The notes beneath the pieces are model-generated. The model saw only the letters and a program-made list of their open reading frames with translations. It made no database searches and had not been told where the DNA came from. 64,000 bases of DNA from a virus (lineage: Duplodnaviria > Heunggongvirae > Uroviricota > Caudoviricetes), in the IMG/VR virus record IMGVR_UViG_3300010365_001407, positions 49,463 through 113,462 of that record, one strand, 5' to 3'. A program made the position numbers and the translations under genes. Shown one piece after another: positions 1 to 40,117 of this stretch (position 1 is the first letter of the stretch; each line of letters starts with the position of its first letter).

Positions 1-237
1 GAATGATTGACAAGGTGATCCACCAAATAGTAAATCTATCTTAGGTAATTGAGAACTTTGTAATTCTGTTATACTACCCATCTGAATTGTGTTTGGATAA
101 TTATGTTGAGTTACTGACATTGCAGGTTCATCAATTTCTGATGCATAATAATTATCATATTTAATACCTAACTTGTTTAAAGCAATTTGTCCACAAGACA
201 TACCATCAAATAAACTTAATACATTTTCTATCTTCAT
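1..237 (-). CDS. DNA (cytosine-5)-methyltransferase, N-terminal part; gene runs off the window edge
   Basis: Minus-strand translation from the ATG at 237: MKIENVLSLFDGMSCGQIALNKLG...DLLFGGSPCQSF. It shows the C5-MTase motif I (F-x-G-x-x-x-G) and the motif IV Pro-Cys-Gln catalytic dipeptide. Confidence 0.7.
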   Translation of the reverse strand, partial: MKIENVLSLFDGMSCGQIALNKLGIKYDNYYASEIDEPAMSVTQHNYPNTIQMGSITELQSSQLPKIDLLFGGSPCQSF

Positions 238-287
238 TTATAAATAAATAATTTTAATATATATAGTACAAAATATAGTCTAAGTTT

Positions 288-977
288 ATGATTAGTAGTT
301 TTACTAAGTTCAATGAAAGTTTAACAAATGATATTGAAAAATTGAAAAGTGATATTGATGATGTATTTGCATATATTTCTGATGATAATAAAGTATCAAC
401 TTATATAAGAGAAAGTGAAGTTTATGTGGATATTCTTTCTATTCTACCAAATAATATAGTATATGATAATATAGAAGAATATATTAATAAACATGAGATA
501 TGGCATGAAGTACTTTTAGATATTAATGTTGCTATAGAACAATTAACCGCTAAGGGTAATGTTGGAGTTGTATTAAATATAAATACAGTAGGCAATGTAA
601 AGATTAAATTTCATTTAATACATAATAAAATAATTAAAAGTGATAATACTTTAATAGTAATTAGTGCTACTAATTTAAGTAAGGCACTTAAAGAAGCTGG
701 ATTAGAAGCTGGATCTGGAACTGATAATTATAGTACAAGAGAAAGAGATAGATATAGTATTCAATTATATTTTAAAAATGTAGAACTAAAAGAAATTGAA
801 GATAAAATTACTAAAATCTTTGTTGATGAAGGATTATCATATATTCAAGTTAAAAGTGAACGTGATTTCTACAATAATGGTGTGATAACCACTAATGTAT
901 TTTTTTCTGAACCTAAAATAAATATTAGTGGTAAATCTACTGGATTTAAAAGAATAAAATTAAAAAGACAAATATAA
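288..977 (+). CDS. hypothetical protein
   Basis: 229-aa ORF preceded by a TTTTAATATATATAG motif at 253-269; no recognisable domain. Confidence 0.55.
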   Translation: MISSFTKFNESLTNDIEKLKSDIDDVFAYISDDNKVSTYIRESEVYVDILSILPNNIVYDNIEEYINKHEIWHEVLLDINVAIEQLTAKGNVGVVLNINTVGNVKIKFHLIHNKIIKSDNTLIVISATNLSKALKEAGLEAGSGTDNYSTRERDRYSIQLYFKNVELKEIEDKITKIFVDEGLSYIQVKSERDFYNNGVITTNVFFSEPKINISGKSTGFKRIKLKRQI

Positions 978-1336
978 TGAATAGACCAGAAGTAAGAATT
1001 ATTAGTCAACAAGAAGAAACTAATAGTAGAGAAGTATCAGGATGGGAAGCAGAACAACTACTTAGAAAATATGGTCAAGATCAAAGTTTTTCTAATAGAC
1101 CTCAAGTTCAACAACCACAACAACCGGGATTAACTTTTGACCAAATGGTTGCTCAAGAAGAAGCTAAAATAAAACAAGAACAGCTTAGGAGACAACAACA
1201 AATGATGGGTCCTAAGCCAGTTACGTTTAATGGTCAAAATGGTTATGATTCAGAGATAAGATATGGTTCTGATTCAGATAGTGGATTTGGTTTCAAAATT
1301 GAAATCACCACTGATATGAATTTACCTAGATATTAA
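977..1336 (+). CDS. hypothetical Q-rich protein
   Basis: 119-aa ORF whose start overlaps the upstream stop (ATAATGA). Confidence 0.45.
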   Translation: MNRPEVRIISQQEETNSREVSGWEAEQLLRKYGQDQSFSNRPQVQQPQQPGLTFDQMVAQEEAKIKQEQLRRQQQMMGPKPVTFNGQNGYDSEIRYGSDSDSGFGFKIEITTDMNLPRY

Positions 1337-1629
1337 TTAAGAACTATTTTAGCTTTTAATCTAAGTTGATTGGATGGTTTTATAGGCCTTGGACATAATA
1401 CCATAAAAGGCTCAACAACATCTTTAGTAATAATAGGTAATTTTATAACATCACCTATCTTAAACCTTTTATCATCTGTTTTAAGTATCTTAACATTTGC
1501 AATTGCAGGAATTCTACTTGGACTCCATTCATAATCAACTAAAGTAGCAGTCAAGGTTACTACATTTTCACCTTCAATAAGTTCAATATTTAACTCTTTG
1601 TTATAATCTATTTTGTTCCAATCAATCAT
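1333..1629 (-). CDS. hypothetical protein
   Basis: 98-aa ORF. Confidence 0.45.
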   Translation of the reverse strand: MIDWNKIDYNKELNIELIEGENVVTLTATLVDYEWSPSRIPAIANVKILKTDDKRFKIGDVIKLPIITKDVVEPFMVLCPRPIKPSNQLRLKAKIVLN

Positions 1630-1671
1630 GACTTTTAGTTTATTTTTCTTCTACAAAGATACAAATTATTT

Positions 1672-2136
1672 TTAATTCCTAAAACTTTTCATTGCACTAT
1701 TTATAGCAAGATCCATTGCAATATCTTGATATTCATCCTCTGTAAGACCTGGTCCATATGCATCTTCTATCTTTTTAATCATTTCATATTTTCCTTTTTC
1801 AGATTCAGCTCTTCTTTTTTGAGATTGTATTTCTTCTTCAACACGTTCATCACTCCAAGTAGTTTCTCTTTCAAGTATCTCAATATCTTCTAGATTACAA
1901 ATACAACCTGCAACACCTGTTCCAGTAACTGCATTTGCTAATTCTTTAGGAACTGCTGCCCAAGTTCTACCACCATCAGAGAAATCATATACATATAAGT
2001 AACCAGATAATCTATATTCATTTGATGAATACTTACTTTTCTTTTCTCTTGTATCTCTGAAACAAGTTTTACCAACTTTTGTATTTTTCAACATATCTGT
2101 AGTAACTGCTTCATTAAACTTTCTCAAATGTTTCAT
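1672..2136 (-). CDS. hypothetical protein
   Basis: 154-aa ORF; TATATATAA motif just upstream on the minus strand (2140-2160). Confidence 0.5.
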   Translation of the reverse strand: MKHLRKFNEAVTTDMLKNTKVGKTCFRDTREKKSKYSSNEYRLSGYLYVYDFSDGGRTWAAVPKELANAVTGTGVAGCICNLEDIEILERETTWSDERVEEEIQSQKRRAESEKGKYEMIKKIEDAYGPGLTEDEYQDIAMDLAINSAMKSFRN

Positions 2137-2159
2137 AGATTATATATAAAAATAGTAAA

Positions 2160-2411
2160 CTAACTTTTAGTAATTAGATTGATTTTTGCTTCTCTTAGCA
2201 AGACTTTTATAAGTTCAAAGTCTTTTTCTGTTAATCCCCAACGGTCTTTAGGTTCAGTTAATAAATAAACAAGGTCTGTCATAGTAGAATCAGTTTTAAG
2301 ATACTCTAATTGTTTTTCACATTGTCTTATATGTGCAGCCAACATAAAGTGTTGTCTATTCATTGCTTCATCTTTCATGAAGTTTATTACATCTTGTATA
2401 TTATAATTCAT
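2160..2411 (-). CDS. hypothetical protein
   Basis: 83-aa ORF, first of four tightly packed or overlapping minus-strand ORFs. Confidence 0.45.
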   Translation of the reverse strand: MNYNIQDVINFMKDEAMNRQHFMLAAHIRQCEKQLEYLKTDSTMTDLVYLLTEPKDRWGLTEKDFELIKVLLREAKINLITKS

Positions 2412-2658
2412 CTAATAATAGTGTTAATTTTAAGTCTCTTAAACATTGACTTTGAGGATTGTATTTATTGAAATATTCTACCACTTTAGTAAGTTCAATT
2501 TTTAAGTTTTCTTGTGTAGGTTCAATATAGACTTTCCCATAATCACCATTAAAGGAATTTTCTATATCTCTTAGTTTACTTGCCATTTCATAGTCTTGAA
2601 CTTTAACTGTAAAAGATTTTAACTCATATACTTTATCAATTACTTCTTGACTAGACAT
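2401..2658 (-). CDS. hypothetical protein
   Basis: 85-aa ORF with start/stop overlap to its neighbours. Confidence 0.45.
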   Translation of the reverse strand: MSSQEVIDKVYELKSFTVKVQDYEMASKLRDIENSFNGDYGKVYIEPTQENLKIELTKVVEYFNKYNPQSQCLRDLKLTLLLDEL

Positions 2659-2890
2659 TTATAGATTTTAATTTATTGTATCTCCATTCACTTAATAAAC
2701 TAAAACTTTCTTTAATATAAGATTGTCTTTCAACACCATCATCATCCACAATTAATATTGTGTGTTTTGTAGAATCTAAAATAGTATATGATTTACCATA
2801 AGTTAATGATACTATTTTTGTATCTGAAAAATCAACTATACATATAACTACATCACCTTTATTCATTTTATTTTCTAACCAATATCCCAT
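2651..2890 (-). CDS. hypothetical protein
   Basis: 79-aa ORF in the same operon-like run. Confidence 0.45.
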   Translation of the reverse strand: MGYWLENKMNKGDVVICIVDFSDTKIVSLTYGKSYTILDSTKHTILIVDDDGVERQSYIKESFSLLSEWRYNKLKSINV

Positions 2891-3411
2891 TATTTAAGTA
2901 GTCTTTTTAATTTTATATCTCTAATTTCTTGTTCACTTCTTCTGAACCAAAGAGTTTGTTCATAAGCTAATCTCAATTCTTTATGAGTAGGTTTAACATC
3001 CCAAACACCATAAACATACATTGAATCATCCCAACAAATACAACTTCTTAATTCAGACCTTTCATCATCAGCCCAACTTTTATATGTCTGTCCATTACCT
3101 TCATACACATATTCATATTGAGTATTTCTCTCCCAGGTTCTTCTTACATCAACCCATTCAACTTCAATTGCCATATCAACCATATAATCATCAATATGTA
3201 ATCCAAGTTTAGGGTAATAAAGTCTTTCTTCATAATCTTCATCAATTCTTTTTATTGGTTCAGTAACTTCATATAAAAAGAACTTACCTGTATTTACTTT
3301 TGCTTTTAAGAAATCATATTTATCATTATGTTTTCTTAAAAAATCACCACTATAAGTAACTATTTTACTTATTTTCCTTTTCTCTGCTATTTCTTCCTTA
3401 GTTAAAATCAT
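2890..3411 (-). CDS. hypothetical protein
   Basis: 173-aa ORF; shares the divergent promoter region 3412-3464 with the fibre gene. Confidence 0.5.
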   Translation of the reverse strand: MILTKEEIAEKRKISKIVTYSGDFLRKHNDKYDFLKAKVNTGKFFLYEVTEPIKRIDEDYEERLYYPKLGLHIDDYMVDMAIEVEWVDVRRTWERNTQYEYVYEGNGQTYKSWADDERSELRSCICWDDSMYVYGVWDVKPTHKELRLAYEQTLWFRRSEQEIRDIKLKRLLK

Positions 3412-3428
3412 TTTACAAATATAAAAAA

Positions 3429-3440
3429 TTAATATATAAG
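3429..3440. promoter_or_regulatory. conserved near-palindromic TTAATATATAAG motif in a divergent intergenic region
   Basis: Same motif family recurs upstream of many genes (see findings); here it sits between divergent genes starting at 3411 (-) and 3465 (+). Confidence 0.35.
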
Positions 3441-3464
3441 ATACAAAATAATATAGAATTAATT

Positions 3465-6233
3465 ATGGCTTTAGTTGTCTTTAGTGAAAGAATAGATTTT
3501 AATTCAATTACTCCTCCAGAACAAGGTGGATATATAGTTGGATATAATATAGAGAATGATTTATTATCACAGATGGATTATCAAGGTATTGTTACTCCAA
3601 TAGGTGGTGTAGGAAGTGCAGGAACATTATTTAGTACATTATCACTAGGTAACACTACTGGTACATATTCTATAGTTTTAGATAGTTCTATAACAAAAGG
3701 AACTAATAAAATATCATTAGATAGTGGTATAGTTTCATTAACAACTGATAATGGTTCTTATGGAGAATCATACTTATATTTGAATTCAGGTAATGTAATT
3801 TTGGGTAATGGTTCCAGTAAAAGTTTTAGAATAGAAAATACAGGTATAACTACTAAATGGTCAGAGACTGATAGACAGATAATTAATACAAACTCATATG
3901 AGTTATTTTTAAATAATTTTGCAACATTACAATTTGGTCAATTATCATCAGGTGCTGGTAGTAAACTATCTGCTTTAATTTCTACCGATAACTCAACAAT
4001 TAGTAATAGTATTGTAAATACAGTTGTAATTGGTGGTCAAAATTTATCAGCAACACAATCTAATTCAGTTTATGTTCCTAACTTGTATATTCAAGATGGT
4101 AAAGTAATAAAAAGTACTAAGGGTACTGGTCAAATTAAAATTACTGAATTAGATATAATAACATCTAACTCTATTGGTAATTTTGCTTTAGTATCATCAA
4201 CTAGTTCAAATGTGTTCACTAAGAATGGTATTATCATAAAGGATAGTGCAACTGCATCAACAAGTCCTAATTTTGATTCTGGTATAACTTATATATCAAC
4301 TAAAAATTCAGGTGCAACTGCCAGTATAAAAAACTCTGTAATTATAGGTGGTAATGGTTTACAAGCCACTCAGGATAATACAGTATATCTTCCTAATGTT
4401 AATATAAATAATTTATATACATTACCATCAACTGATGGTACATCAGATCAGGTTATAAAAACAGATGGTTTAGGAAATTTATCTTGGACAACAGTAGGAG
4501 TTGGTGGAACAGGTGGAACAGGTTCAGGTATAACAAATACTATAACAAAGTGGACAAGTTCTTCAACTTTTGGTAATAGTAATATAACTGATGATGGTAC
4601 AACTATTAATATTAATGATTCATTAATAATAGGTACAAATTCTGTCTATACAAGTAATACATTGAATACAATAATTGGATATAGAACAAACGTATCTATG
4701 GCAGGTGGATTTAATACTGCTATTGGTGTTAATGCATTTAGGAATAATACAACAGGTGGAAATAATATTATTATGGGTAATAATTCACTCTATAATAATT
4801 CAACAGGTAATTTTAATCTTGCAATTGGTAATAACTCACTATATAATAACACAACCGCAGGTTTTAATATAGGAGTTGGACACAATACTTTATATGCAAC
4901 AACAACAGGTGTGGATAATGTTGCAATTGGTTATTTACCATTAAGTAGTAATACAACAGGTTCTAATAATATTTCAATTGGTAAAGCAGCAATGTTATTT
5001 AACACAACAGGTTCTGGTAATGTTGCAATTGGTTGGCAGTCATTACCAAGAAATACAAGTGCAGATAGTACAATTTCAATTGGTAGAAATGCAATGTTTT
5101 ATAGTAGAATAGGGGAACAAAATGTTGCAATTGGTGATGCCACAATGTATTACAATACCTTAGGAGGTTATAATGTTTCTGTTGGATATCAAGCAGCATT
5201 TGAAAATACAACAGGAATATTAACTTTAGGTACATTTTCTGAAGGAAGTGGATATACACCAGGAACACATTCAGGAGTTCAACTTAAATATAATGGTGGT
5301 GGTTTTTTAGATGTTGTTGCAAGTGATTATCCATTAGCAACAATAGTTGTTTCACCAGGAGGTACTGTGAGCTCAGTCACATTAGACACACCAGGACATG
5401 GATTTCAAAATACATCAACTATTCTTGGATGTACTGCAAGTCCAATTGGACCAGGGACTGGATTCACTGTAAGGATAAGTTCATTAATAAGCGGTGAATA
5501 TAATACAATTATTGGTAATGGTGCACTTCGTTATAATACAATAGGTAGTGATAATATAGCAATTGGTAAAAATGCTGGTAATAATACTATATTAGGAACA
5601 AATGTTATATCTAATAATTCTATATTTATAGGTAGTGATACTAGAGCACAGTCAACAGATGAAACTAATCAAATAGTAATAGGTTATAATACAACAGGAA
5701 ATGGATCTAACTCTACTACAATAGGTAATGATAATACATTAAAAACTATCATTAAAGGTAATGTTGGATTTGGATTAACTGGACCAAGTACAAAAGTTGA
5801 TATTTATGCAACTCAATCAGGTGGTGGTTTTAAACTACAAGATACATCAGAAGGACCAGGTTATGTTCTTATATCTGATGTGAATGGTGTTGCAAGTTGG
5901 ACATCTTCAGTTACATCAACCACAGCAATTGATGTTATAACATCAACATCAAGTATTACAACAAATACATTAACAGATGGTGGATATGATCAAAATGGTA
6001 GATGTGTTATTATAAATAATGGTACATATAGTATAAACCTTACTGTTAATTCTTATGACAGATTTACATCAACATATTTAAAACATGGAACTGCAAGTGT
6101 AACATTTGTACAAGGTTCAGGAAGAACACTAATTGATGTTGATGGTACATTTATATTAGATGGTTCTGTTGGTTCAACTGCAACAATAATAAGTTATGGT
6201 ACAACTGATTACTTAAGAGTAAGTAATGCATAA
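3465..6233 (+). CDS. tail-fibre-like structural protein with YadA-head / Hep_Hag-like tandem repeats
   Basis: 922 aa, N/S/T/G-rich. More than 12 tandem units of about 15 aa of the form NTTGxxNxAIGxxAL between aa 400 and 600. Confidence 0.65.
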   Translation: MALVVFSERIDFNSITPPEQGGYIVGYNIENDLLSQMDYQGIVTPIGGVGSAGTLFSTLSLGNTTGTYSIVLDSSITKGTNKISLDSGIVSLTTDNGSYGESYLYLNSGNVILGNGSSKSFRIENTGITTKWSETDRQIINTNSYELFLNNFATLQFGQLSSGAGSKLSALISTDNSTISNSIVNTVVIGGQNLSATQSNSVYVPNLYIQDGKVIKSTKGTGQIKITELDIITSNSIGNFALVSSTSSNVFTKNGIIIKDSATASTSPNFDSGITYISTKNSGATASIKNSVIIGGNGLQATQDNTVYLPNVNINNLYTLPSTDGTSDQVIKTDGLGNLSWTTVGVGGTGGTGSGITNTITKWTSSSTFGNSNITDDGTTININDSLIIGTNSVYTSNTLNTIIGYRTNVSMAGGFNTAIGVNAFRNNTTGGNNIIMGNNSLYNNSTGNFNLAIGNNSLYNNTTAGFNIGVGHNTLYATTTGVDNVAIGYLPLSSNTTGSNNISIGKAAMLFNTTGSGNVAIGWQSLPRNTSADSTISIGRNAMFYSRIGEQNVAIGDATMYYNTLGGYNVSVGYQAAFENTTGILTLGTFSEGSGYTPGTHSGVQLKYNGGGFLDVVASDYPLATIVVSPGGTVSSVTLDTPGHGFQNTSTILGCTASPIGPGTGFTVRISSLISGEYNTIIGNGALRYNTIGSDNIAIGKNAGNNTILGTNVISNNSIFIGSDTRAQSTDETNQIVIGYNTTGNGSNSTTIGNDNTLKTIIKGNVGFGLTGPSTKVDIYATQSGGGFKLQDTSEGPGYVLISDVNGVASWTSSVTSTTAIDVITSTSSITTNTLTDGGYDQNGRCVIINNGTYSINLTVNSYDRFTSTYLKHGTASVTFVQGSGRTLIDVDGTFILDGSVGSTATIISYGTTDYLRVSNA

Positions 6234-7119: not shown

Positions 7120-7128
7120 ATTTTTTAG

Positions 7129-7214: not shown

Positions 7215-7218
7215 ATTG

Positions 7219-7306: not shown

Positions 7307-7349
7307 ATATTTTTAATTATACCACTTATTGTACCTTTTGATACTTTTG

Positions 7350-7435: not shown

Positions 7436-7442
7436 ATATTTG

Positions 7443-7515
7443 TGATTCCAATAGGATTCGAACCTATATCTGATCGTTCGTAGCGACCTATCCTATCCAA
7501 TTGAACGATGGAACC
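7443..7515 (-). tRNA. tRNA-Arg (anticodon ACG)
   Basis: 73 nt; acceptor GGTTCCA/TGGAATC, anticodon stem GGTCG/CGATC with loop CTACGAA, T-arm TAGGTTCGAATCCTA. Confidence 0.6.
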
Positions 7516-7522
7516 AATAAAA

Positions 7523-7552
7523 AAACCCACAAACTTTGAGGTTTGTGGGTTT
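7523..7552. terminator. bidirectional rho-independent terminator hairpin
   Basis: AAACCCACAAAC-TTTGAG-GTTTGTGGGTTT is a perfect 12-bp stem flanked by A-run and T-run. Confidence 0.6.
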
Positions 7553-7727
7553 CAAATAACTTTTAACTTAAAATTATGAATACACAAGAACCTCACTCAA
7601 TTTACTTGAGCGACTTGAAGAACTTGACGATGTAGTGCTTTGCACTCTCACTATGTGAGTACTTATAATTGTTTTCATAACTTATATATTAAAAATTTAT
7701 TCTTTTGTTTTACTTTTTTACTTTTAG

Positions 7728-7820
7728 TAGTCTGAACAGGAATCGAACCTGTGATGCGCGGAAGATACCCCTACTATATATAGGATCGACTACATAATGT
7801 TACCACTACATTATCAGACT
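7728..7820 (-). tRNA. tRNA-like element with irregular core, possibly Ile(UAU)-like or a pseudo-tRNA
   Basis: Canonical acceptor AGTCTGA/TCAGACT and T-arm ACAGG-TTCGATT-CCTGT, but 93 nt long. About 10 extra nt sit between the D-arm and the only good anticodon-like hairpin (TCCTA-TATATAG-TAGGG), which has A at position 33. Confidence 0.35.
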
Positions 7821-7829
7821 ATTTTTTTG

Positions 7830-7901
7830 TGCGGACTGACGGAATCGAACCGACCTCTTATGGGCTTCAACCATACGCTAAACCGTCTCAGCTAAATCCG
7901 C
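7830..7901 (-). tRNA. tRNA-Phe (anticodon GAA)
   Basis: 72 nt; acceptor GCGGATT/AGTCCGC, anticodon stem TATGG/CCATA with loop TTGAAGC, T-loop TTCGATT. Confidence 0.6.
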
Positions 7902-8678
7902 ATTATATTTTTTTATCCATTTTCTTATAGTGTTATCACTAACACCATATTTTTTACCAGTTGAGACATAGTTTGTTTCTTTTATATCTTTTAATAGTTG
8001 GTATAATGAAGGTCTTTCAACCTTTCTTTGTTTAAATGAATCACATTTAGAACACATTTTAGAACGTTTATATATTTCTATACCACATTCACAATACTTT
8101 TTATTATCTAATAGTTCAAATGTTGGTTTGTTTTCTACTAATCCATTTATATAAAGTATTAAACTGTCAATAAAATACTTTTTAGAATCCTTGTTCAATA
8201 ATTGATACTCACTCCATTTTATTCTAATTATATCCCAACCTAAGTCTTCTAAATATTTATTTCTTCTTTTATCACTTTCAATAATTTTATTATCTAAATA
8301 GTGTTGACTACCATCAACCTCTATATCTATTTTCTTATCTAAAATACAAAAGTCTAATTCGTACAATCCAATTCTGTAGGATTTTGTTATATTAATATTT
8401 TTATCTAAAAAAACCTCAGTAAAATATTTCTCAGGATATGATTCATTTCTACTATGATTTAATAGGTAAGGAACTTTATCAGGATTATTTTTTAAATATT
8501 CTTTTCTACTATTTGATATTTTTTTTCTAGTTTCATCTGATAACTTTCTATTTTTACCAATTTCACTTAATTTACTACATCTAATTTTATAATTTGGATT
8601 TAATTTACAATTTGTAATATGTCCACCAAGTTTTAATCCATTTTCTGTTGTAAATCCACAATACTTACACTCCTTCAT
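7878..8678 (-). CDS. homing-endonuclease-like protein (N-terminal Zn finger, NUMOD3-like motifs, Vsr/DUF559-like PD-(D/E)xK domain)
   Basis: 266 aa; CKYCGF...HITNC, LSDETRKKISNSRKEY, and YELDFCILDKKIDIEVDGSQHY...RRNKYLEDLGWDIIRI. Confidence 0.6.
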   Translation of the reverse strand: MKECKYCGFTTENGLKLGGHITNCKLNPNYKIRCSKLSEIGKNRKLSDETRKKISNSRKEYLKNNPDKVPYLLNHSRNESYPEKYFTEVFLDKNINITKSYRIGLYELDFCILDKKIDIEVDGSQHYLDNKIIESDKRRNKYLEDLGWDIIRIKWSEYQLLNKDSKKYFIDSLILYINGLVENKPTFELLDNKKYCECGIEIYKRSKMCSKCDSFKQRKVERPSLYQLLKDIKETNYVSTGKKYGVSDNTIRKWIKKYNADLAETV

Positions 8679-8754
8679 AATTCAATTATCTTTTCTTTTA
8701 TATATAAATAATTGAACTCCCTCTCCTTAAAAAAGCTGAGTGCTTGTAAATTAG

Positions 8755-8833
8755 TTCCCCCGACTGGGTACGATCCAGTAGTCTGCATATTAAAAGTATG
8801 CGGCTTTCTCCATTTAAGCTACGGGAGAGAATT
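8755..8833. repeat. 79-bp direct repeat, copy 1 (contains tRNA-Lys)
   Basis: Identical to 9152-9231: GTTCCCCCGACTGGGTACGATCCAGTAGTCTGCATATTAAAAGTATGCGGCTTTCTCCATTTAAGCTACGGGAGAGAATT. Confidence 0.9.
8756..8828 (-). tRNA. tRNA-Lys (anticodon UUU) with A54:U58-swapped T-loop
   Basis: Acceptor TCTCCCG/CGGGGGA, D-stem GCTT/AAGC, anticodon stem GCATA/TATGC with loop CTTTTAA, T-arm ACTGG-ATCGTAC-CCAGT. Confidence 0.55.
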
Positions 8834-8838
8834 ATTTG

Positions 8839-8911
8839 GGTGAAAGACGGATCCCGAGACCGCATCTCCTCCTTCACAGGGAGGCATCCTAACCTTTAGA
8901 CGACAATCACC
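8839..8911 (-). tRNA. degenerate tRNA-His-like element (anticodon GUG, G-1/C73), possible pseudogene
   Basis: Perfect anticodon arm CCTCC-CTGTGAA-GGAGG with extra 5' G and discriminator C. Only 5/7 acceptor pairs and a non-canonical T-arm (GCGGT-CTCGGGA-TCCGT). Confidence 0.3.
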
Positions 8912-8920
8912 ATATATCAG

Positions 8921-8991
8921 CACGCCATACAGGACTCGAACCTGTAACACTGGTTTTGGAGACCAGGATGATACCATTTCACCAATGACGT
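8921..8991 (-). tRNA. tRNA-Trp (anticodon CCA)
   Basis: 71 nt; acceptor ACGTCAT/ATGGCGT, anticodon stem CTGGT/ACCAG with loop CTCCAAA, T-arm ACAGG-TTCGAGT-CCTGT. Confidence 0.6.
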
Positions 8992-8998
8992 ATTTTGG

Positions 8999-9072
8999 GT
9001 TGACAGACGGGACTTGAACCCGCAATCCCTTGGCTCACAACCAAGTGCTTTAACCAATTAAGCTACCATCAA
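8999..9072 (-). tRNA. tRNA-His (anticodon GUG)
   Basis: Acceptor TTGATGG/CTGTCAA (two G-U pairs), D-stem GCTT/AAGC, anticodon stem CTTGG/CCAAG with loop TTGTGAG, T-arm GCGGG-TTCAAGT-CCCGT, discriminator C. No encoded G-1. Confidence 0.5.
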
Positions 9073-9074
9073 AG

Positions 9075-9146
9075 TGGAGAGAGTGGGGATCGAACCCACG
9101 ACACCTGCGGCTTCAACACAGTGCTCTACCTCTGAGCTACCTCTCC
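9075..9146 (-). tRNA. tRNA-Phe (anticodon GAA), second copy
   Basis: 72 nt; acceptor GGAGAGG/TCTCTCC, D-stem GCTC/GAGC, anticodon stem CTGTG/CGCAG with loop TTGAAGC, T-arm GTGGG-TTCGATC-CCCAC. Confidence 0.6.
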
Positions 9147-9151
9147 TTTTT

Positions 9152-9231
9152 GTTCCCCCGACTGGGTACGATCCAGTAGTCTGCATATTAAAAGTATGCG
9201 GCTTTCTCCATTTAAGCTACGGGAGAGAATT
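9152..9231. repeat. 79-bp direct repeat, copy 2 (contains the second tRNA-Lys)
   Basis: Identical to 8755-8833. Confidence 0.9.
9153..9225 (-). tRNA. tRNA-Lys (anticodon UUU), duplicate
   Basis: Identical sequence to 8756-8828. Confidence 0.55.
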
Positions 9232-29037: not shown

Positions 29038-32000
29038 TTGAAATCATTTGCAATATTAAGAACCAATGTTGGTTTAACAACTAATATAAAAATAATGATT
29101 GATACTAACTATAAATTAAGTTTAGATAGTATTGAATCAAATATGAATTTGTCTTTTGATAAGTTCAAAAAGGTCTCATTTAATAAGAGTAATTATTATG
29201 ATGAACTAATTCCTTATTTTTATAAAGATTTACCTGCAGAAACAGCATATAGTATAAAATATGAGAGTGATGCAGAAACAATGTCAAATGATTTTGCTTA
29301 TCAGTATGATGAGTTATATAACTATGGTGCAAGAAATATTATAGATAATAAAAATTACTCAGAAGAGTATGAATACTTTGCACCTCTTTATATTACTAAA
29401 ACAGGACTTCCTAAAAAGTTTATTGTATTTAGAGTAGATGAACCAGGTATTGGAACATTAACAACTGCAAATTTTAAAACAGAAATAATTAATAAATTAA
29501 AAACTGTTAAGTTATTTGACTTGACAAAAGAAAGTATATTTGGAGAATGGTTACACACTAACTTTATTGATAATAAATATTTTCCAGATTCACCATTAGA
29601 AATAGACTTTAGAAGTCTTGAGTTTTGTAGATGGAATGGTATTGATTATCAAAATGGTGGTTATACATCTAAGTCATTATTTATTGATGATATTTTAGAT
29701 GAAGAAAAAGAGATATTTGAACTTGAAAAGTTTGTATTTGACTCTTATAAAAACAATAAAGTTGTTTTTCCTAACATATTAAACTTATCATTTTTATTTG
29801 ATGATACACCTTCTACGCCAGAACAAAAAAGAAGATGGTCTATAAATAGATATTATGGATTTTATTTAGATGATTTAAAGTTGGTAACAACAATGTCATC
29901 TTATATACCTGTACCTTTAAAAAATGATATTATTGTTTTATCAGGTACTGATAGAAATATATTATCGTCACCAAGTGGTTATCCATTTGAAGAAGTTTGG
30001 ACTGATAAAAAGCCTTTTTATGTAGAGTATAGTGGTAAATATTATAAAGTAGAACAATATACTGAAACTATAACAAATCAACTAATTAAGATTAAAAATA
30101 CTACAGGTAATACATCAGTTGATAGAATGGAAAGAGACTTAGGATTTAGTTCATCTAAAAAACAAGCATCTACTGTTAAAATGGTTAATACTAAAAACCT
30201 AACAACAAATACAAAATCTGCAGTTGAGAATTATGGTGAGGTAATTGTAACTAAATATAGAATAATATCTGATTTAGATTTTGGTGGAATGACTTATTCA
30301 AGTTTCAATCAAAACTTTGGTGAAATTAAAAACAATCAATTGATTGATATGAGTAAAAATCCAATTTTAATAGATGGATTTGATAGTGCTGATATTTGGT
30401 TAATTAATATAGATGGTGTTTACCATAATTTAATTAATAGTGGTACTAATTCAATTAGTGTTAATAGTGATTACTCATTCCAATTTAATGAGAATAGTTA
30501 TACTTATAAAGTAAATGGTGTTGAAAAAACAATCAATACAATAGTTGACTTTAATAATCCACCTACAATATTTGATATTTACAAATTAAAACTTACAGAT
30601 ATTAAAGACTTTGATGATAGATTAGTTGATACTGAGTATTCTAAATATGAATATGAGAAGTCAACTGAATTAACAAATACTGATGAGACTAAGATGTATT
30701 TTGAAGATTTGACAAGTAAAACTGATCCAAGAGATTTAGATGACTTTGTTTATAAGAATGAAGTGGTTAAAATTCCTGTATCATCTGAGTACACTGCAAA
30801 TTATGAAACTTTTAAAGTTGATGATACAACTGGTAATTTATCAGAGTTATGGAGAAAGAACTCAGTTTATTGTAGATTTGGATTTCAAAACTCAATATCA
30901 GGAAATGACGTACCTTACTTATTAAATAATTCATTAATATTTGAAGATTATAATAGGACTGTAAATGTTTCTGATATTCATCCTAAAAGAATTGAAAGAA
31001 ATTTAGATTACTTTTATACAATAAACTCAGCAACATCATCATATTTACATCATACATTACATGTTGAGGGATTTACCTATAGTAGTATTGATAACACATT
31101 TAAGTTTGAGTTAGATAAATATTTGAACTTACAATATGATATGGTTTTAGGTACTTATTCTTATGATTACTTTAGTTATTTCTTTAGCAAACAAACACAA
31201 TTTTTAAATGGTGATATTAAGAAGAATACTAGAAAATACTCTTATTTTAATGTAGGTGATGACTCTGTACCTAATCATAGTTTATTTAGAGGTATTAGAT
31301 TTGATGTTTATAAAGTAGAAGGTGTTAACTTAAACTCTAATAATCAGATTGATAAAATTAACATATCAACAAATAATGATTTTGTAGATTATAAAATGTC
31401 TGTTTTATTATCTGATAATGATTATCAACCAATATTTTTAGATAATAATTCAAATCAAATTATTGGGTTGACATATTCTCCTAATCAATTAGAATGGAGT
31501 ATAATTGATGAGTGGAAAATGGATAAAGTTTATGCAACTGGTTCAGTTGTTATATTTGATGATATTTTATTTACTAATCCTAATGGTACTTTAGGACCTT
31601 GTGGACCTACAATTAACTTAAATGGTAATAATGTTATATCAAATCCAAGTAATCAAGGTTGGAATATTTATAGTGATGGAGTAAATAATGATAATAGAAT
31701 ATTTTGGTCACCAAGACAAAATGATACATTTATTTATAATTCTGGTGAGTATTGGCAAAAAAACTTTACAACAGAAACAGGAAGTGATTATATAAATTTT
31801 TGGATTCCACCAGATACACAATCTAGTTCTAATTATGGAACAGGAAGTATTGTAATGTATAACAATAAGGTTTATATATCTAATACATATAATAATAACT
31901 TTCATCCAAATCAAAAACAATGGATAGATATATCAACTATTAGTAAGTTTGATTCTAGTATAACATATTCTAAGTCAGATATAGTAATAAGTACTGATTC

Positions 32001-33339
32001 ATATTATATTTCATTAGTTGATAAAAACAAAGGAAATAATATTGAAAATAGCCTTGTATGGGAAAGAACTGTAAATAAACCAACTGCTGATTTATTTTAT
32101 TGGAAATTAATAGAGATTTGGAATCCAACTAAGAGATATGAACAACAAGCTTATGTTGTTCATAATAATGTATTATATAGAAATTTTAGACGTCAAGTAA
32201 CTCAAATGCAAGTACAGCAACTTTTTAGACCTCAAAATCCTTATTTAGAGATGTTACCTGGTTTTGAACCAGGAGTTGATGTTGATTGGGCTAGACAATA
32301 TAGTTTAGTTCCAGATACAGATTATACTTATAGCATATATAGTAATCCAATTATTTTATTAAATGATAGATATTATATGGCAACTAATAAAACAGAAGAT
32401 TCAACTCTGGATAATGGTATTGTAATCTATATCAATAAAAAGTGGGAAAATATATTGGTTAATATAAATATATCAGATAATACATATACTAATGTTTCAT
32501 CAACTAATAGAGATGATCTTTATAATGAGTTATATAAGAAATTAACTGCTACTAATTTTATGACTGCTATAAATGATATAACTAATAAATATGGATTTAC
32601 AGATTATGTATCTTATATAGTTATTGATAATGATAATACAATTAGTAAGTATAGTTATACTAATAATATTACTAGTCTACCTTATATAATTAAATGTGAA
32701 GGACCTGATAGTTTAGATGTTAAAATACAATCTTTGTTAAAAAGACCTATTTACTTACCTAATCCATTAAATCCAATTAAAAAGTTAGAAAAGGGTAAGA
32801 TATTAAATATTAATCAATTAAACTACTATAATGGTAATCCAGTTGGTGTAAATATAATTGAAAATAGATTTGCTCCTAAAGTAACTGAGAATTATCATGG
32901 TGCTACAAATTATATAAAAGATACTATTTATAGATTCAGTGGTTATTATATGCCATTATTTTATGATATAGAATTATTTAAAAGAGATTATGAGTACAAA
33001 GAAGTAGGTAATTATTTATTTGATACTTCATTAACAAATTTTGGTATTATTAAAGAAAGAAAAGTTAGAAAGATAAATAGAAAAGGAAGTATTCTAAAAT
33101 TAAAAGATAGTCCAGATGAGAAATCTATCTATCCAATGTTAGATGAATTTGGTTACTCTATCTATGACTTTTTCATATTCTCATCAACTTGGGATTTAAA
33201 GTATTACTTAGAAACATCTACATTAACTAAGGCAAATAAAGATTATTTAGAGAAATATACAATAGATGAAAATATTGTAAATAACAATAATATAGTAATA
33301 CCTATTACAATACCAACAAATATTGGACCATCAAATTAA
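29038..33339 (+). CDS. very large virion structural protein (putative)
   Basis: 1433 aa, N/Y/T-rich; follows the previous gene after a 9-nt gap. Confidence 0.55.
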   Translation: MKSFAILRTNVGLTTNIKIMIDTNYKLSLDSIESNMNLSFDKFKKVSFNKSNYYDELIPYFYKDLPAETAYSIKYESDAETMSNDFAYQYDELYNYGARNIIDNKNYSEEYEYFAPLYITKTGLPKKFIVFRVDEPGIGTLTTANFKTEIINKLKTVKLFDLTKESIFGEWLHTNFIDNKYFPDSPLEIDFRSLEFCRWNGIDYQNGGYTSKSLFIDDILDEEKEIFELEKFVFDSYKNNKVVFPNILNLSFLFDDTPSTPEQKRRWSINRYYGFYLDDLKLVTTMSSYIPVPLKNDIIVLSGTDRNILSSPSGYPFEEVWTDKKPFYVEYSGKYYKVEQYTETITNQLIKIKNTTGNTSVDRMERDLGFSSSKKQASTVKMVNTKNLTTNTKSAVENYGEVIVTKYRIISDLDFGGMTYSSFNQNFGEIKNNQLIDMSKNPILIDGFDSADIWLINIDGVYHNLINSGTNSISVNSDYSFQFNENSYTYKVNGVEKTINTIVDFNNPPTIFDIYKLKLTDIKDFDDRLVDTEYSKYEYEKSTELTNTDETKMYFEDLTSKTDPRDLDDFVYKNEVVKIPVSSEYTANYETFKVDDTTGNLSELWRKNSVYCRFGFQNSISGNDVPYLLNNSLIFEDYNRTVNVSDIHPKRIERNLDYFYTINSATSSYLHHTLHVEGFTYSSIDNTFKFELDKYLNLQYDMVLGTYSYDYFSYFFSKQTQFLNGDIKKNTRKYSYFNVGDDSVPNHSLFRGIRFDVYKVEGVNLNSNNQIDKINISTNNDFVDYKMSVLLSDNDYQPIFLDNNSNQIIGLTYSPNQLEWSIIDEWKMDKVYATGSVVIFDDILFTNPNGTLGPCGPTINLNGNNVISNPSNQGWNIYSDGVNNDNRIFWSPRQNDTFIYNSGEYWQKNFTTETGSDYINFWIPPDTQSSSNYGTGSIVMYNNKVYISNTYNNNFHPNQKQWIDISTISKFDSSITYSKSDIVISTDSYYISLVDKNKGNNIENSLVWERTVNKPTADLFYWKLIEIWNPTKRYEQQAYVVHNNVLYRNFRRQVTQMQVQQLFRPQNPYLEMLPGFEPGVDVDWARQYSLVPDTDYTYSIYSNPIILLNDRYYMATNKTEDSTLDNGIVIYINKKWENILVNINISDNTYTNVSSTNRDDLYNELYKKLTATNFMTAINDITNKYGFTDYVSYIVIDNDNTISKYSYTNNITSLPYIIKCEGPDSLDVKIQSLLKRPIYLPNPLNPIKKLEKGKILNINQLNYYNGNPVGVNIIENRFAPKVTENYHGATNYIKDTIYRFSGYYMPLFYDIELFKRDYEYKEVGNYLFDTSLTNFGIIKERKVRKINRKGSILKLKDSPDEKSIYPMLDEFGYSIYDFFIFSSTWDLKYYLETSTLTKANKDYLEKYTIDENIVNNNNIVIPITIPTNIGPSN

Positions 33340-35604: not shown

Positions 35605-36022
35605 ATACTTCTACTACCCATTGTCCTATTGCAGTTCTAAAATGTTCTACTCTCATTACAGTTATCACAGTTAATGTAAACTGATTTTCACCAGGTCTTA
35701 GTTCACAAACTACATTTAATTTTGTTTCTTTATCTCTGATGATGAATCTATTTGGTTTACCATTTTCATCTTTAATATCATATCTATCTTGCATTAATGC
35801 AATTGTTATTTCCTCAATTGCTCTTTCAACTAAATCTTTAATTTCACTATCTTCAATTTTCCCACTTAATTTATTGAAACCATGTCTATATTGTTGAATT
35901 GATGCATGTTGTATTTTTTCAAGGTCTATTCTAATTTCAACCTCTTTTTGTAAATTACCTAATTCAGTCTTACCACTTCTAAAACCAATAGGTCTAAAGT
36001 TTTCAAATTTTTTAATTATCAT
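35603..36022 (-). CDS. hypothetical protein
   Basis: 139-aa ORF. Confidence 0.45.
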   Translation of the reverse strand: MIIKKFENFRPIGFRSGKTELGNLQKEVEIRIDLEKIQHASIQQYRHGFNKLSGKIEDSEIKDLVERAIEEITIALMQDRYDIKDENGKPNRFIIRDKETKLNVVCELRPGENQFTLTVITVMRVEHFRTAIGQWVVEV

Positions 36023-36411
36023 ATTATATGAATTCCTTTTTCATTATTTGAAACCATATTATCAAATGCTCTTCCTATTTTCCACCAACCTTTATCATTA
36101 CTTTCACCTACAGGTTCATGTCTTGATATATTCTCTCTGGATAAACAAATTAATATGGGAAAGTCAAAATGACTTTCAATATATTCAGCAGTTCTTCTTG
36201 CCATATCTAAATCATCTGTATTCAAAATAGATTGATATGCCAAACCTAAATGTGATGCGCCTTGTGGTTTAACCCACCAATCAACATCTAAATTATCAAA
36301 AACTTTTATAGATTCTAACCATTTAGGATCACCATGTTCTACTAAAAAAATTAATATAAGAACTTTATTTTCTTTTTCTTCTATTGACTCAAAGTATTTA
36401 AGATATTTCAT
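36019..36411 (-). CDS. hypothetical protein
   Basis: 130-aa ORF; promoter-like ATAATTTTATATATAGTTA directly upstream on the minus strand. Confidence 0.45.
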   Translation of the reverse strand: MKYLKYFESIEEKENKVLILIFLVEHGDPKWLESIKVFDNLDVDWWVKPQGASHLGLAYQSILNTDDLDMARRTAEYIESHFDFPILICLSRENISRHEPVGESNDKGWWKIGRAFDNMVSNNEKGIHII

Positions 36412-36441: not shown

Positions 36442-36469
36442 AAACCTCTATTAATTAAAATAGAGGTTT
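36442..36469. terminator. terminator hairpin
   Basis: AAACCTCTATT-AATTAA-AATAGAGGTTT. Confidence 0.55.
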
Positions 36470-36488: not shown

Positions 36489-37913
36489 TTATTTTTTACC
36501 TTTTTTGTCAGTAGTTTCATCAACTACTGGAATGTCAATAACATTACTATTATTTGCAGGTTTCATACCTTTACCCATCATTTCCATGATTTGCATTCCA
36601 AGTAATCCATCTAATGAACCATTACCTTGTCCACCACCATTGATTAATAAGTCAGGCATAATTTTCACTTTACCTTTACCAATCTCTTCTGTTACTTTGA
36701 ATGTAGTAAAGTTATCTTTACCCATTGCATTAACTGCCAATTCATATGCTTTAGCAGTAGAAGTACCTACAGCTAATATTGCATCTGCATCTGCTTCACC
36801 AATAAGTTTTTTCTTTGTTGCTTCTGCTTCAGCATTTAATTTAGTTGCCTCTGCATTAGCTTCTGCTGCAATTTTTACTGAACTAGCAGCACCTGTTGCT
36901 TTTTTAACTTCTGCATCTGCAATTTTCTCTGAAATCTCAACACCTTGATTTGCTTTTACAACTTCACCTTGCATATCTGCAATTGCAGTTTGTTTTTCAA
37001 CACCTTGTCTTCTTACTTGAGCTTTTTCTTGAGTTTCATAAGTAACTTGTTGTTCTTCTGCAATTTTACGATCAGTTAATGTTTTCATTAATGATTCTGG
37101 TGGTGTAATATCACCAATCAATGTATCAACTGCATGAACATTCAATATTCTTCAAGAACAGAAGATATTGATTTTTTTGCAGCATCTTGTCTTGATTGAC
37201 GAGTAGATAAGAATGCAATAACATCTGAATCTTGTGCAGAGTTTCTAAAATAGTTACCAATTGTAGGCTCTAATACTTGTGATACAAGGTTTTGCATAGA
37301 ACCAAAACGTGCAATTACTTTTGGTGCTTCTGTCATTGGAATGTGAATAATCTGAGATACATCTAAGTTAAATGGGAAACCATCTTTAGAACGAACAGTA
37401 ATTAAAATCAGTTCTTGTAACTTTATCAGGTGTATCATAAAGAACTTGTTCAAGTGCCATTTCTCTTGCATCATCAGTAGGTAGTTTTTTAAATCTCCAA
37501 GAACTAAACATTAGTTTTCTTGATACTCCTTCAAATCTAACATAGTTATCAATATGTGTATAAGTACCTCCACTCCAATTTTTCATTTGTTTGCTAACAC
37601 TTGATAATTCATTTATCTTATACATACCACCTTTAACCAAAGTTTTGTAACTATCACTCTTACAGATAAGAATATCTCCTTTTGATAATTGTGAAAACTC
37701 TAATGGTTCTTCAACATTCTCTATTTTCCTAGCTATGTCAATTTTTGGCAAAGGTTTACCATCAGTAGTTTCAAAGTTATTGACTGTATACCAACCTATA
37801 TCTTTAATCCAAGCTCTACCAATTCTATCTTTCTTACTATTCTCTAATGCAACTACTTGATATGGTAAACCCTTTACCAATTTTATAGTTGCTTTTTTAC
37901 AAATTACTACCAT
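36489..37913 (-). pseudogene. SPFH/band-7 (flotillin-like) gene split over three reading frames
   Basis: ORFs 37386-37913, 37142-37474 and 36489-37145 read together: ...KLPTDDAREMALEQVLYDTPDKVTRTDFNY / VRSKDGFPFNLDVSQIIHIPM...AAKKSISSVLEEY / NVHAVDTLIGDIT...AEANAEATKLNAEAEATKK. That is an SPFH domain plus an Ala/Glu/Lys coiled-coil tail. Both frame changes sit in A/T homopolymer runs. Confidence 0.5.
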
Positions 37914-38311
37914 TAGTCTAACATTGTTTTTTTAACATTACCTTTTTCTTTTAATTTCTTAAATGAAGATGGACAATCCTTAATACCATTTTGCATCCAA
38001 TCTTGGAAATCCATATGTTCAAGATAATCTTGTGCAGTTGGAATAAATCTCATTCCAAAATCTTCAAGAATATGAATTTCACAAATATCTTTCACAGATA
38101 CTTCTTTACCATCAGAGTTAGTAATGGTATAACCAAAAATAGGTATCATTACCTCATGGATCCAAAAGGCATTATGAGTTAATGCTCTATGTCTGTTATC
38201 TGAAATATAAGCCTTAGAACAATCCATTTTAACATGAATTTCTAAATAATCTTCTAATTGTCCTCCAAATCTTCTTACTGATGATTTAGAGTGAATGTGT
38301 GCATTTGCCAT
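37913..38311 (-). CDS. hypothetical protein
   Basis: 132-aa ORF. Confidence 0.45.
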   Translation of the reverse strand: MANAHIHSKSSVRRFGGQLEDYLEIHVKMDCSKAYISDNRHRALTHNAFWIHEVMIPIFGYTITNSDGKEVSVKDICEIHILEDFGMRFIPTAQDYLEHMDFQDWMQNGIKDCPSSFKKLKEKGNVKKTMLD

Positions 38312-38312: not shown

Positions 38313-38729
38313 CTATTTGTTATAATCTAATTTTTTTGTTAATTCTATTAGGTCTTCCTTAGTTAATTTACTAAGTATAAATTTAATTGTATCTTCTTGA
38401 TTAGTGAAGTAATTTAAGTTATCTGATATAAAGTCAATATAATCTTCTTGTTCTCCTAATCCCAATGTTAATAATTTGTATTCTCTTTCAAATTCAAGAC
38501 CACCATTTACTAAATACTGACCACCTACATCTTTCAAGTCTTTTCTAAATTGTTCAATACTTTTATCTCTTGATATTTCAAACTCAACTATCCTATTAAT
38601 ATCATAATCAAAAGTATCTACAATATCTTTGGATTCTTTCAATCCAAGACCACTTACTTCCTTTATAAGTTTTACAAATGCTAATTTACTTGGTGTTTTT
38701 TGAACACACTTCATTCTTATCTTTTTCAT
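38313..38729 (-). CDS. hypothetical protein
   Basis: 138-aa ORF. Confidence 0.45.
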   Translation of the reverse strand: MKKIRMKCVQKTPSKLAFVKLIKEVSGLGLKESKDIVDTFDYDINRIVEFEISRDKSIEQFRKDLKDVGGQYLVNGGLEFEREYKLLTLGLGEQEDYIDFISDNLNYFTNQEDTIKFILSKLTKEDLIELTKKLDYNK

Positions 38730-38730
38730 A

Positions 38731-39345
38731 TTACATTACTCTTTTAGTGGCTTCATTAAATAAATAGGAGTCAATAATCTTTTGGTCAACTTTACATACT
38801 TGATTAAAAGTATCACCAAAAGCGGATGTTTCATCATTATAATTGTGTATAGTGAAGTCAGATAGTCTATTTTTTTCAAGTTGATCCATTTCAGTCTTTG
38901 ATAAATCATTGATTTGTAATAATCCCATTTTAGTAAGATTTTTACATCTACTAATTCTATCTGTATGTGAGGCAAATATACTAATACTTTTATCCATATT
39001 TTTATCCCAACCTGTTTCAAACAAGATTGATGAATGGAAAATAGTGTATATTGAAGTTTGTTTTTTGTTGAACCTTTCATAAGCTCTGAAAATATCAGGT
39101 TCAACCATATTTAGTATGTTGTTGAATACTTCTGGGTTTTTAATTTCTCTGAAATTTAAGTAGTCACCTTGGAAAATTTCACTTCCTAATTCATCTTTAA
39201 TCTCACCTAATAATTCCCAATTGTAGTTTAATATAAAACGTAGTACAGTATCTGCATCAAATACAGGAATACCTATTTGTTTAAATAAATTAGCCACTCT
39301 AGTTTTACCAGAGTATCTACTACCACTTAATCCGATCTTAATCAT
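38731..39345 (-). CDS. P-loop kinase, dephospho-CoA kinase (CoaE)-like
   Basis: 204 aa; MIKIGLSGSRYSGKTRVANLFKQIGIPVFDADTV parallels the CoaE N-terminus (IGLTGGIGSGKS...V.DAD). Confidence 0.55.
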   Translation of the reverse strand: MIKIGLSGSRYSGKTRVANLFKQIGIPVFDADTVLRFILNYNWELLGEIKDELGSEIFQGDYLNFREIKNPEVFNNILNMVEPDIFRAYERFNKKQTSIYTIFHSSILFETGWDKNMDKSISIFASHTDRISRCKNLTKMGLLQINDLSKTEMDQLEKNRLSDFTIHNYNDETSAFGDTFNQVCKVDQKIIDSYLFNEATKRVM

Positions 39346-39469: not shown

Positions 39470-40117
39470 ATGACATATATTTACTCACTTGAACATCCTC
39501 TCACTGGAGAGATAAGATACATTGGGAAAACAAGAAGTCTTAAACAAAGATATTATTCACATACAGAAAATTATTCAAATAAAAGAAATAAATCTCATAG
39601 AACTAATTGGATCAATGGTCTCAAAAAAGATGGATTAAAACCAATTATAAAAATACTTGATGTAGTTGATGATAATGAATGGAAATTTTGGGAAATATAT
39701 TGGATTTCTCAATTTATAACTTGGGGATTTAATTTAGTTAATCATACTTATGGTGGTGAAGGTTCACAATTTGGTAATATAACATCTTTTAAAAAAGGTA
39801 ATATACCTTGGAATAATGGTACTGCTAAACCAAAAGAAATTAAAGAAACTAGAGGAAAATCTGAAAATAGTATAAAAACACAATTTAAAAAAAATCATAT
39901 CTCTTGGAATAAGAATAAAAAAGGTTATAAATTAACAGGTAATAAAAAAGCCAGACCTGTTTTGCAATATGATATAGAAGGTAATTTTATAAAGGAATAT
40001 GATAGTTGTTTAGATGCTGCAAATGAATTTGGATGTATTCTAGAAAATATAAGAAAAGTATGTGTTGGTAAGGGAAATACTGCAAAAGGCTTTATATGGA
40101 AATATAAATTTATATGA
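39470..40117 (+). CDS. GIY-YIG homing endonuclease
   Basis: 215 aa; YIYSLEHPLTGEIRYIGKTRSLKQRYYSHTE GIY-YIG motif; basic C-terminal half with NUMOD-like KxGxxxW repeats. Confidence 0.7.
   Translation: MTYIYSLEHPLTGEIRYIGKTRSLKQRYYSHTENYSNKRNKSHRTNWINGLKKDGLKPIIKILDVVDDNEWKFWEIYWISQFITWGFNLVNHTYGGEGSQFGNITSFKKGNIPWNNGTAKPKEIKETRGKSENSIKTQFKKNHISWNKNKKGYKLTGNKKARPVLQYDIEGNFIKEYDSCLDAANEFGCILENIRKVCVGKGNTAKGFIWKYKFI

Follow-up and report, generated by a model that had tools for sequence, protein, structure and literature searches.

On the minus strand of a 64,000-nucleotide (nt) stretch of DNA from a virus of the Caudoviricetes (the window; positions 49,463 to 113,462 of the IMG/VR record IMGVR_UViG_3300010365_001407), three consecutive open reading frames (ORFs) abut or overlap one another in three different frames, which raises the question of whether they are the pieces of one SPFH (Band_7) membrane-scaffold gene and, if so, what broke it. 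The initial annotation had read them as an SPFH domain plus a flotillin-type coiled coil split by two frameshifts in homopolymer runs, and had named a genuine pseudogene, programmed frameshifting and a local homopolymer error as the options. The three ORFs were found exactly where it had placed them:

37913-37386, minus strand: ORF A, 175 amino acids (aa), in a frame of its own
37474-37142, minus strand: ORF B, 110 aa, in a frame of its own
37145-36489, minus strand: ORF C, 218 aa, in a frame of its own

The comparison of assembled contigs, from which the evidence for the lesions was obtained throughout, suggested that this region is a real and recent pseudogene, namely the remnant of a phage SPFH membrane-scaffold gene that would have been inactivated in two steps; we give this reading a probability of about 0.75.

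A profile search confirmed the similarity to the SPFH family. ORF B matched the Pfam family Band_7 (PF01145) with an E-value of 3.7e-11 and 43.8 bits, above the gathering cut-off of 23.6, over profile positions 49-133 of 176, and ORF C matched profile positions 134-175 of the same family with an E-value of 0.021 and 15.3 bits. Because the match of ORF B ends at profile position 133 and that of ORF C resumes at 134, the boundary between them (junction 2) cuts one continuous SPFH domain. Once repaired to full length, the protein matched Band_7 along residues 244-456 (profile positions 3-175 of 176, E-value of 4.6e-24, 85.9 bits) and is a bona fide SPFH/Band_7 member. ORF A had no Pfam match and no SPFH similarity. 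Thus, of the proposal that the three ORFs together rebuild an SPFH domain and a coiled coil, the part concerning ORFs B and C stood, as they carry Band_7 positions 49-133 and 134-175 and the Ala/Glu/Lys helix, whereas ORF A proved to belong to a separate gene and codons 1-328 of the 631 are missing.

Comparison with orthologues in related phages, which the initial annotation had recommended, recovered the gene as an intact single frame. The sole match in the phage collection, the 642-kilobase (kb) uncultured phage LR756502.1 (75 % nucleotide identity), has an intact 631-aa SPFH ORF, a 169-aa ORF upstream of it and then a 238-aa ORF homologous to ORF A. In tblastx and tblastn searches on LR756502.1, window positions 37913-37434 matched the 238-aa gene, positions 37414-37145 matched SPFH residues 328-417 and positions 37142-36513 matched residues 418-628; when the intact 631-aa orthologue was used as a tblastn query against the window, its residues 328-417 and 418-628 were found in two frames, with 86 % and 65 % identity, respectively, a similarity much greater than chance would give. 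The IMG/VR collection gave the same picture: all the loci found with the full-length query (45/45) were single-frame, two (L041 and L042) being cut by contig ends, and 76 of the 80 found with a C-terminal profile query were intact and single-frame, the other four being cut by contig ends. The two sets overlap and sum to 125 locus matches; across both we counted 121 complete copies, every one of them (121/121) in a single frame and without the insertion described below. In the close syntenic relative L012, the genes for CoaE, a bL12-like protein, a DUF6915 protein and a 241-aa protein precede an intact 632-aa SPFH gene, which is followed by a 148-aa gene and an S1-domain gene. Normal members of the gene cluster to which ORF A belongs have 239-241 aa (238 aa in LR756502.1).

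What separates ORF B from ORF C is a 2-nt insertion. At this point the sister contig L058 (91-92 % nucleotide identity, synteny kept) is in frame, and it reads GAAGAATAT--AATGTTCAT, as do LR756502.1 and L007, whereas the window lineage reads GAAGAATATTGAATGTTCAT; in this alignment (A1), GAAGAATAT--AATGTT stands in the sister L058 and in the outgroups (L001, L007), against GAAGAATATTGAATGTT in the window and L002. The inserted TG lies at 37144-37143 (GAATAT-TG-AATGTT) and produces a TGA stop at 37144-37142 together with an overlapping TTG at 37145-37143, with zero residues lost. A change of homopolymer length at junction 2 was rejected, since the lesion is a TG dinucleotide relative to the sister and to all the outgroups. 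The same insertion was found in at least eight contigs of the lineage (the window, L002-L006, L052 and L053), which were reached by exact-protein look-up and showed 99.9-100 % nucleotide identity to the window. L002-L004 are from three ENA assemblies, L005 and L006 are Logan contigs from two wastewater runs in the US, and L052 and L053 come from JGI. The full-length split alleles (414 + 218 aa) were those of the three ENA assemblies; in L002 and L004 a 414-aa Band_7 ORF is followed by a 218-aa ORF, and the two overlap in TTGA. The presence of an identical TG in eight lineage contigs indicated that it is not a random sequencing error.

The other break, junction 1, is a deletion. The window was colinear with L002 except for L002 positions 3991-5743, a segment of 1753 base pairs (bp) that is missing from the window and whose length is not a multiple of three (3 × 584 + 1). 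The microhomology at the deletion is 1 nt, position 37403 (A) being the sole base common to both alignments. With this segment, the window has lost the last 70 codons of a 240-aa gene, all of a 162-aa gene, the intergenic region and, start codon and hydrophobic N-terminus included, codons 1-328 of the SPFH gene; L002 and L004 retain the 240-aa, 162-aa and 414-aa genes. We therefore rejected a frameshift at junction 1, where the deletion has joined a truncated upstream gene out of frame to SPFH codon 329. The two junction strings quoted in the initial annotation (…GATTTTAATTACTG… and …GAATATTGAATG…) are present in the sequence, but the lesions are not two homopolymer frameshifts: one is the inserted TG dinucleotide and the other the loss of 1753 bp. 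The locus can accordingly be laid out as follows:

37403-37913, minus strand: 5' portion of a conserved gene of unknown function, normally 239-241 aa long, of which 170 native codons + 1 nt are left
37402-37404, minus strand: deletion junction, at which the window equals L002[1..3990] + L002[5744..] and reads …AAGAACTGATTTTAATTACTG…
37145-37402, minus strand: SPFH remnant 1, codons 329-414 of the ancestral 631-codon gene (ITVRSKDGFPFNLDVSQ … SSVLEEY)
37143-37144, minus strand: 2-nt insertion TG (GAA GAA TAT / TG / AAT GTT)
36489-37142, minus strand: SPFH remnant 2, codons 415-631 and the stop (NVHAVDTLIGDI…)
36442-36469, minus strand: terminator-like hairpin (AAACCTCTATT-TTAATT-AATAGAGGTTT, then a T run), 20 nt past the ORF C stop

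The ATG of ORF A (37913) and the stop codon of the DUF6915 gene overlap, and the native codons of ORF A are followed by five foreign ones (NYCSF) and a stop at 37388-37386, giving a chimeric 175-aa ORF. Remnant 1 has neither a start codon nor a membrane anchor of its own, and the apparent start of ORF B is an out-of-frame ATG within ORF A. The first ~43 residues of remnant 2 complete the Band_7 match, and the remnant also has an Ala/Glu/Lys helix of ~125 residues and a Gly-rich C-terminal tail; ORF C is open at 218 aa when the TTG at 37145 is taken as the start, and its first ATG is codon 20.

As a cause of the deletion, repeat-mediated slippage was considered and discarded. A 10-nt direct repeat, CAAGAACTGA, occurs at L002 3976-3985 and 5703-5712, but the spacing of its copies is 1727 nt and not 1753; measured from the breakpoints, the copies lie 5 nt and 31 nt inward, so that their offsets differ by 26 nt. 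Since 17 other repeat families (9-30 nt) were found in the same 2 kb around the deletion, the position of this repeat is probably coincidental.

Metagenome assemblies can create chimeric joins, and either the TG or the deletion junction, or both, could have been an artefact of sequencing or assembly. In keeping with this, exact searches of IMG/VR returned neither of the two junction strings, and the one for the deletion was missing as well from the JGI metagenome collection scanned, in which the TG string was not looked for; these negatives concern collections in which the lineage is not represented, the lineage having been found through exact-protein look-ups. Against an artefact, the TG is identical across at least seven separate assemblies with different contig-naming styles, and the insertion of a dinucleotide is not known as a typical short-read error. 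The deletion junction was likewise reproduced. L052 showed gapless colinearity with the window over 10.5 kb at 99.97 % identity, L053 was also colinear, and both carry the junction; the exact chimeric 175-aa ORF A was present on four JGI contigs. Of the two Logan contigs, L006 begins exactly at the right breakpoint, AATTACTG, and the start of L005 lies 7 nt beyond it, its first bases (TGATTTT) being those of the deletion allele; such ends would be expected if the sample contained both alleles and the assembly graph branched at the breakpoint. In addition, a microhomology of a single base is too short for the collapse of a de Bruijn graph. With the TG in at least eight contigs from ENA, JGI and Logan and the deletion in at least two further JGI contigs, a local homopolymer or sequencing error seemed very improbable to us.

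Programmed recoding, that is, a -1/+2 ribosomal frameshift or transcriptional slippage restoring a single SPFH polypeptide across junction 2, was the option that we considered least credible of all. The ORFs do overlap, there is an A7 run 37 nt upstream, and the RNA downstream of junction 2 folds with modest stability (minimum free energy of -24.5 kcal/mol), but the z score of this fold is weak (-2.06) and 6 of 200 shuffled sequences folded as well. The permissible window is of only ~9 nt (GA AGA ATA TTG A) and contains neither an X_XXY_YYZ heptamer nor a CUU_UGA-type motif, so that there is no slippery site, and slippage on the A7 run would hit a stop, because a TGA 9 nt upstream of the TTG closes the frame of ORF C. 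Furthermore, the site is unbroken in L058 and in all 121 complete IMG/VR copies, and in the window the frame upstream of junction 2 has lost its start codon and the N-terminal 328 codons, leaving no upstream frame from which ribosomes could shift. Reassignment of TGA as a sense codon was also rejected, as read-through restores no homology and code 11 leaves ORFs as long as 1808 aa open.

The option of a genuine pseudogene is thus the one favoured by lesions that recur across contigs and by the intact orthologues. The ancestral gene was a single SPFH ORF of 626-640 codons, with a hydrophobic anchor, a region of ~210 residues with 'IxPEGxIGL' repeats, Band_7 at 244-456, the Ala/Glu/Lys helix and the Gly-rich tail, and it stood after CoaE, bL12-like, DUF6915 and 240-aa genes and, in some relatives, a 162-aa gene. 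This last gene (162/169 aa) was present upstream of SPFH in L002 (4232-4720) and LR756502.1 and was absent from L012. In a first step, TG was inserted after codon 414 in the window lineage, producing 414-aa and 218-aa ORFs that overlap in TTGA; in a second step, a 1753-bp illegitimate deletion arose in one sub-lineage, which includes the window. Since the insertion is found in both the full-length and the deleted alleles, it either came earlier or was spread by recombination.

Both lesions seem to be recent. The ratio of nonsynonymous to synonymous substitutions (dN/dS) between the window lineage and L058 was 0.20 over the shared SPFH part (dS 0.19), and those of the neighbouring genes were 0.02-0.27 for three conserved ones and 0.82 for a fourth, poorly conserved one. 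Inspection of the alignments revealed few lineage-specific substitutions once the mosaic contig L011 was considered. A dN/dS close to that of the conserved neighbours and the scarcity of unique substitutions indicated that neither lesion is old, and we infer that they are too recent to have left a signal of relaxed selection. Parsimony polarisation of the substitutions on the window branch was discarded as a test of such relaxation because it is confounded by mosaicism, L011 sharing the C-terminal states of the window.

L011/L062 (IMGVR_UViG_3300020160_002689) has a C-terminal SPFH half that is near-identical to that of the window lineage, with 91 % identity over ORF C, and it shares with the window C-terminal states that differ from those of L058, the closer sister overall. 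This pattern indicates recombination within the SPFH gene among huge-phage lineages.

Some observations weigh against a pseudogene. ORF C is undamaged, with 217 codons free of any further stop or indel, and the insertion is unusually clean, as it costs no residue and places an immediate stop in an overlap, TTGA, of the kind that is a classic arrangement for translational coupling. Moreover, an independent lineage of related huge phages, represented by L055 and L056, keeps the C-terminal part only, starting within four residues of the same point; and L052 and L053 may come from the same sample. In a rival reading, the TG would have split the SPFH gene into two coupled genes (414 + 218 aa, TTGA) whose products reassemble, or the 218-aa coil would act by itself, for instance through co-assembly with the SPFH cages of the host or by poisoning them, which would account for its staying intact even in the deletion allele of the window; we consider this pair of possibilities unlikely. 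For the second of them taken by itself, in which the 218-aa piece is a functional stand-alone phage gene (with a TTG or Met-20 start) whose product co-assembles with or disrupts host SPFH/flotillin cages, the case appeared more doubtful still. If it were true, two independent huge-phage lineages, that of the window and that of L055/L056, would have converged on keeping this module.

In favour of fission or of a stand-alone module are the cleanness of the split, the fact that all eight lineage contigs, of both alleles, have the same unbroken ORF C, and the reduced gene of L055/L056, which retains only query residues q409-611 as an intact 224-aa ORF with a TTG start ('LDEYNVHAV') and has a dN/dS of 0.095 against L059. 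The structure predicted for ORF C with AlphaFold 2 (AF2) also agrees with it: a continuous helix along residues 16-140, with a predicted local distance difference test (pLDDT) score of ~90 (>90 over most of it), so that the model shows a confident helix of 125 residues typical of SPFH oligomerisation regions. A Foldseek search of this model against the PDB gave nothing significant, the best hit being the HflK/C 'hat' with an E-value of 7, and a lone long helix is not discriminating in such a search.

On the other side, the break falls inside Band_7 (profile positions 133/134 of 176) and not at a domain border, and there were no split copies among those examined in IMG/VR, where the 121 complete copies were intact and the six others were cut by contig ends. 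The split contigs are all ~99.9 % identical, so that finding ORF C intact in them tells almost nothing about its evolution, and the dN/dS of L055 cannot be dated relative to the loss of its N-terminal part. The TTG is a weak start and has upstream of it no Shine-Dalgarno-like motif and no promoter motif of the TAnnTTTG type, which we take to be a Bacteroidota-type element; scans upstream of ORF C for the sigma-70 consensus and TAnnTTTG found nothing specific, neither motif being enriched over shuffled sequence. A two-part complex, finally, is impossible from the window, as the N-terminal partner has been deleted.

A recurrent, conserved split at the site of junction 2 had been suggested by several homologues of 205-241 aa that start with '…EEYNV(H/N)AVDTL' on long contigs. 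This idea was rejected. L059 was found to be a contig-end truncation, and the clustering of starts arose from the selection of hits; the remaining short C-terminal ORFs on long contigs were either further contig-end cuts or belonged to GC-richer contigs (guanine + cytosine content of ~34-35 % where measured) with cellular-type neighbours, in which the breaks lie elsewhere (L054 at q164 and q397/398, L057 at q48 and q407, and L061 at q354-377). In another contig with cellular-type neighbours, L060 (JGI 3300062522, 2725-4524), the SPFH homologue is single-frame over q19-606 and was called as three genes (269, 72 and 227 aa); this copy has in-frame stops and not frameshifts, which could be due to errors, to a pseudogene or to a different genetic code.

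The related huge phage of L055 (4832-5675) and L056 (Logan ERR7850081 and ERR7850080, respectively) has a GC content of 28.7 % and SPFH residues 409-611 only. At its start, the SPFH fragment shares 8 nt with an unrelated 58-aa ORF, and no trace of the N-terminal part of the gene was detectable there. The same contigs carry a 1407-aa gene homologous to window positions 29038-33339.

The pseudogene that we favour resembles the ordinary products of reductive genome decay in that a frameshifting indel is found throughout the lineage, a larger deletion with minimal microhomology is found in a sub-lineage, and intact and decayed alleles coexist in nature. It differs from them in that it is carried by a huge phage, that every other complete phage copy examined is intact, and that the first lesion leaves a clean TTGA overlap. 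Judging from the sequence, the window would be able to make no functional SPFH scaffold, the product of the upstream gene would be a C-terminally truncated 175-aa chimera, and the SPFH fragments may be passively transcribed from the operon before them, as far as the hairpin at 36469-36442, which is likely the 3' end of the transcription unit.

With respect to the protein family, the full-length allele has the anchor, the domain and the long C-terminal helix that are found in stomatin, prohibitin, flotillin and HflK/HflC of the SPFH/Band_7 superfamily. Its hydrophobic N-terminus, ILAYWPWMLLVVAVLMYKFIFRVFFGLVIV, was read from the sequence of L002 and is a putative anchor; the window allele, in which codons 1-328 have been deleted, is devoid of it. 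Unlike the members of the superfamily, this gene is located on a phage and encodes an extra N-terminal region of ~210 residues with repeated 'PEGxIGL' motifs. The Ala/Glu/Lys-rich coiled coil and the length of ~600 aa are reminiscent of bacterial flotillin-like proteins such as E. coli YqiK (COG2268) and Bacillus FloT; however, the similarity to YqiK of E. coli K-12 was restricted to the low-complexity coil (BLASTP E-value of 8e-4, 26 % identity). Band_7 was the sole Pfam family matched, with no flotillin-specific model among the matches, and searches of NCBIfam and of PDB sequences gave no match. A total of 527 homologues of ORF C were found, the automatic JGI names being YqiK or HflC and mostly 'uncharacterized membrane protein YqiK', and the nearest named cellular homologues, with 57-60 % identity to ORF C, bore the names of Bacteroidota metagenome-assembled genomes (Sphingobacteriales, Flavobacteriales and Cyclobacteriaceae). 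The assignment to a flotillin/YqiK subfamily follows the automatic JGI names and is only nominal.

The window as a whole fits a huge phage in its GC content of ~27 %, its long ORFs (the longest reaching 1808 aa under code 11) and its array of tRNA genes. The upstream operon (38313-39345, minus strand, and 37913-38311) encodes a homologue of CoaE (dephospho-CoA kinase), a 138-aa bL12-like protein with the C-terminal domain of ribosomal protein L7/L12 (PF00542), which is unusual on a phage, and the DUF6915 protein. Downstream of the remnant, a 130-aa ORF (36019-36411) is absent from L012, and L058 has in its place a 171-aa ORF with 39 % identity. Genes of the mobile-element type were found near the locus, none of them at the deletion breakpoints: a GIY-YIG/NUMOD1 homing-endonuclease-like gene (39470-40117, plus strand) adjoins an M16 peptidase gene, and at ~41.5-43.9 kb the gene calls of L052 include a faint LAGLIDADG match and a D12-class methyltransferase, a few kb from the deletion.

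At 7035-9226 (minus strand), the array contains at least 11 tRNA-like genes. ARAGORN reported among them an odd 94-nt 'tRNA-???' with a 4-base anticodon at 7727-7820, for which Rfam gave no confirmation. The Rfam tRNA-Sec model matched at 7351-7435, where the anticodon is UGA (Ser-type) and the variable arm is long; this tRNA-Sec-like gene was considered as a suppressor and ruled out by its Ser-type UGA anticodon.

A literature search for 'SPFH' together with 'huge phages' retrieved nothing. Our results indicated that a gene for an SPFH/flotillin-like scaffold of ~630 aa is widespread and intact in huge phages, and that the apparent double frameshift of the window would be an ordinary pseudogene seen at two stages of decay in phage populations of wastewater and sludge, and neither a case of recoding nor one of bad sequence. 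This phage may thus do without the SPFH gene in the communities of wastewater and sludge, and the lineage supplies natural alleles, one full-length but split and the other with its N-terminal part deleted, which could be compared should a host of the phage be found.

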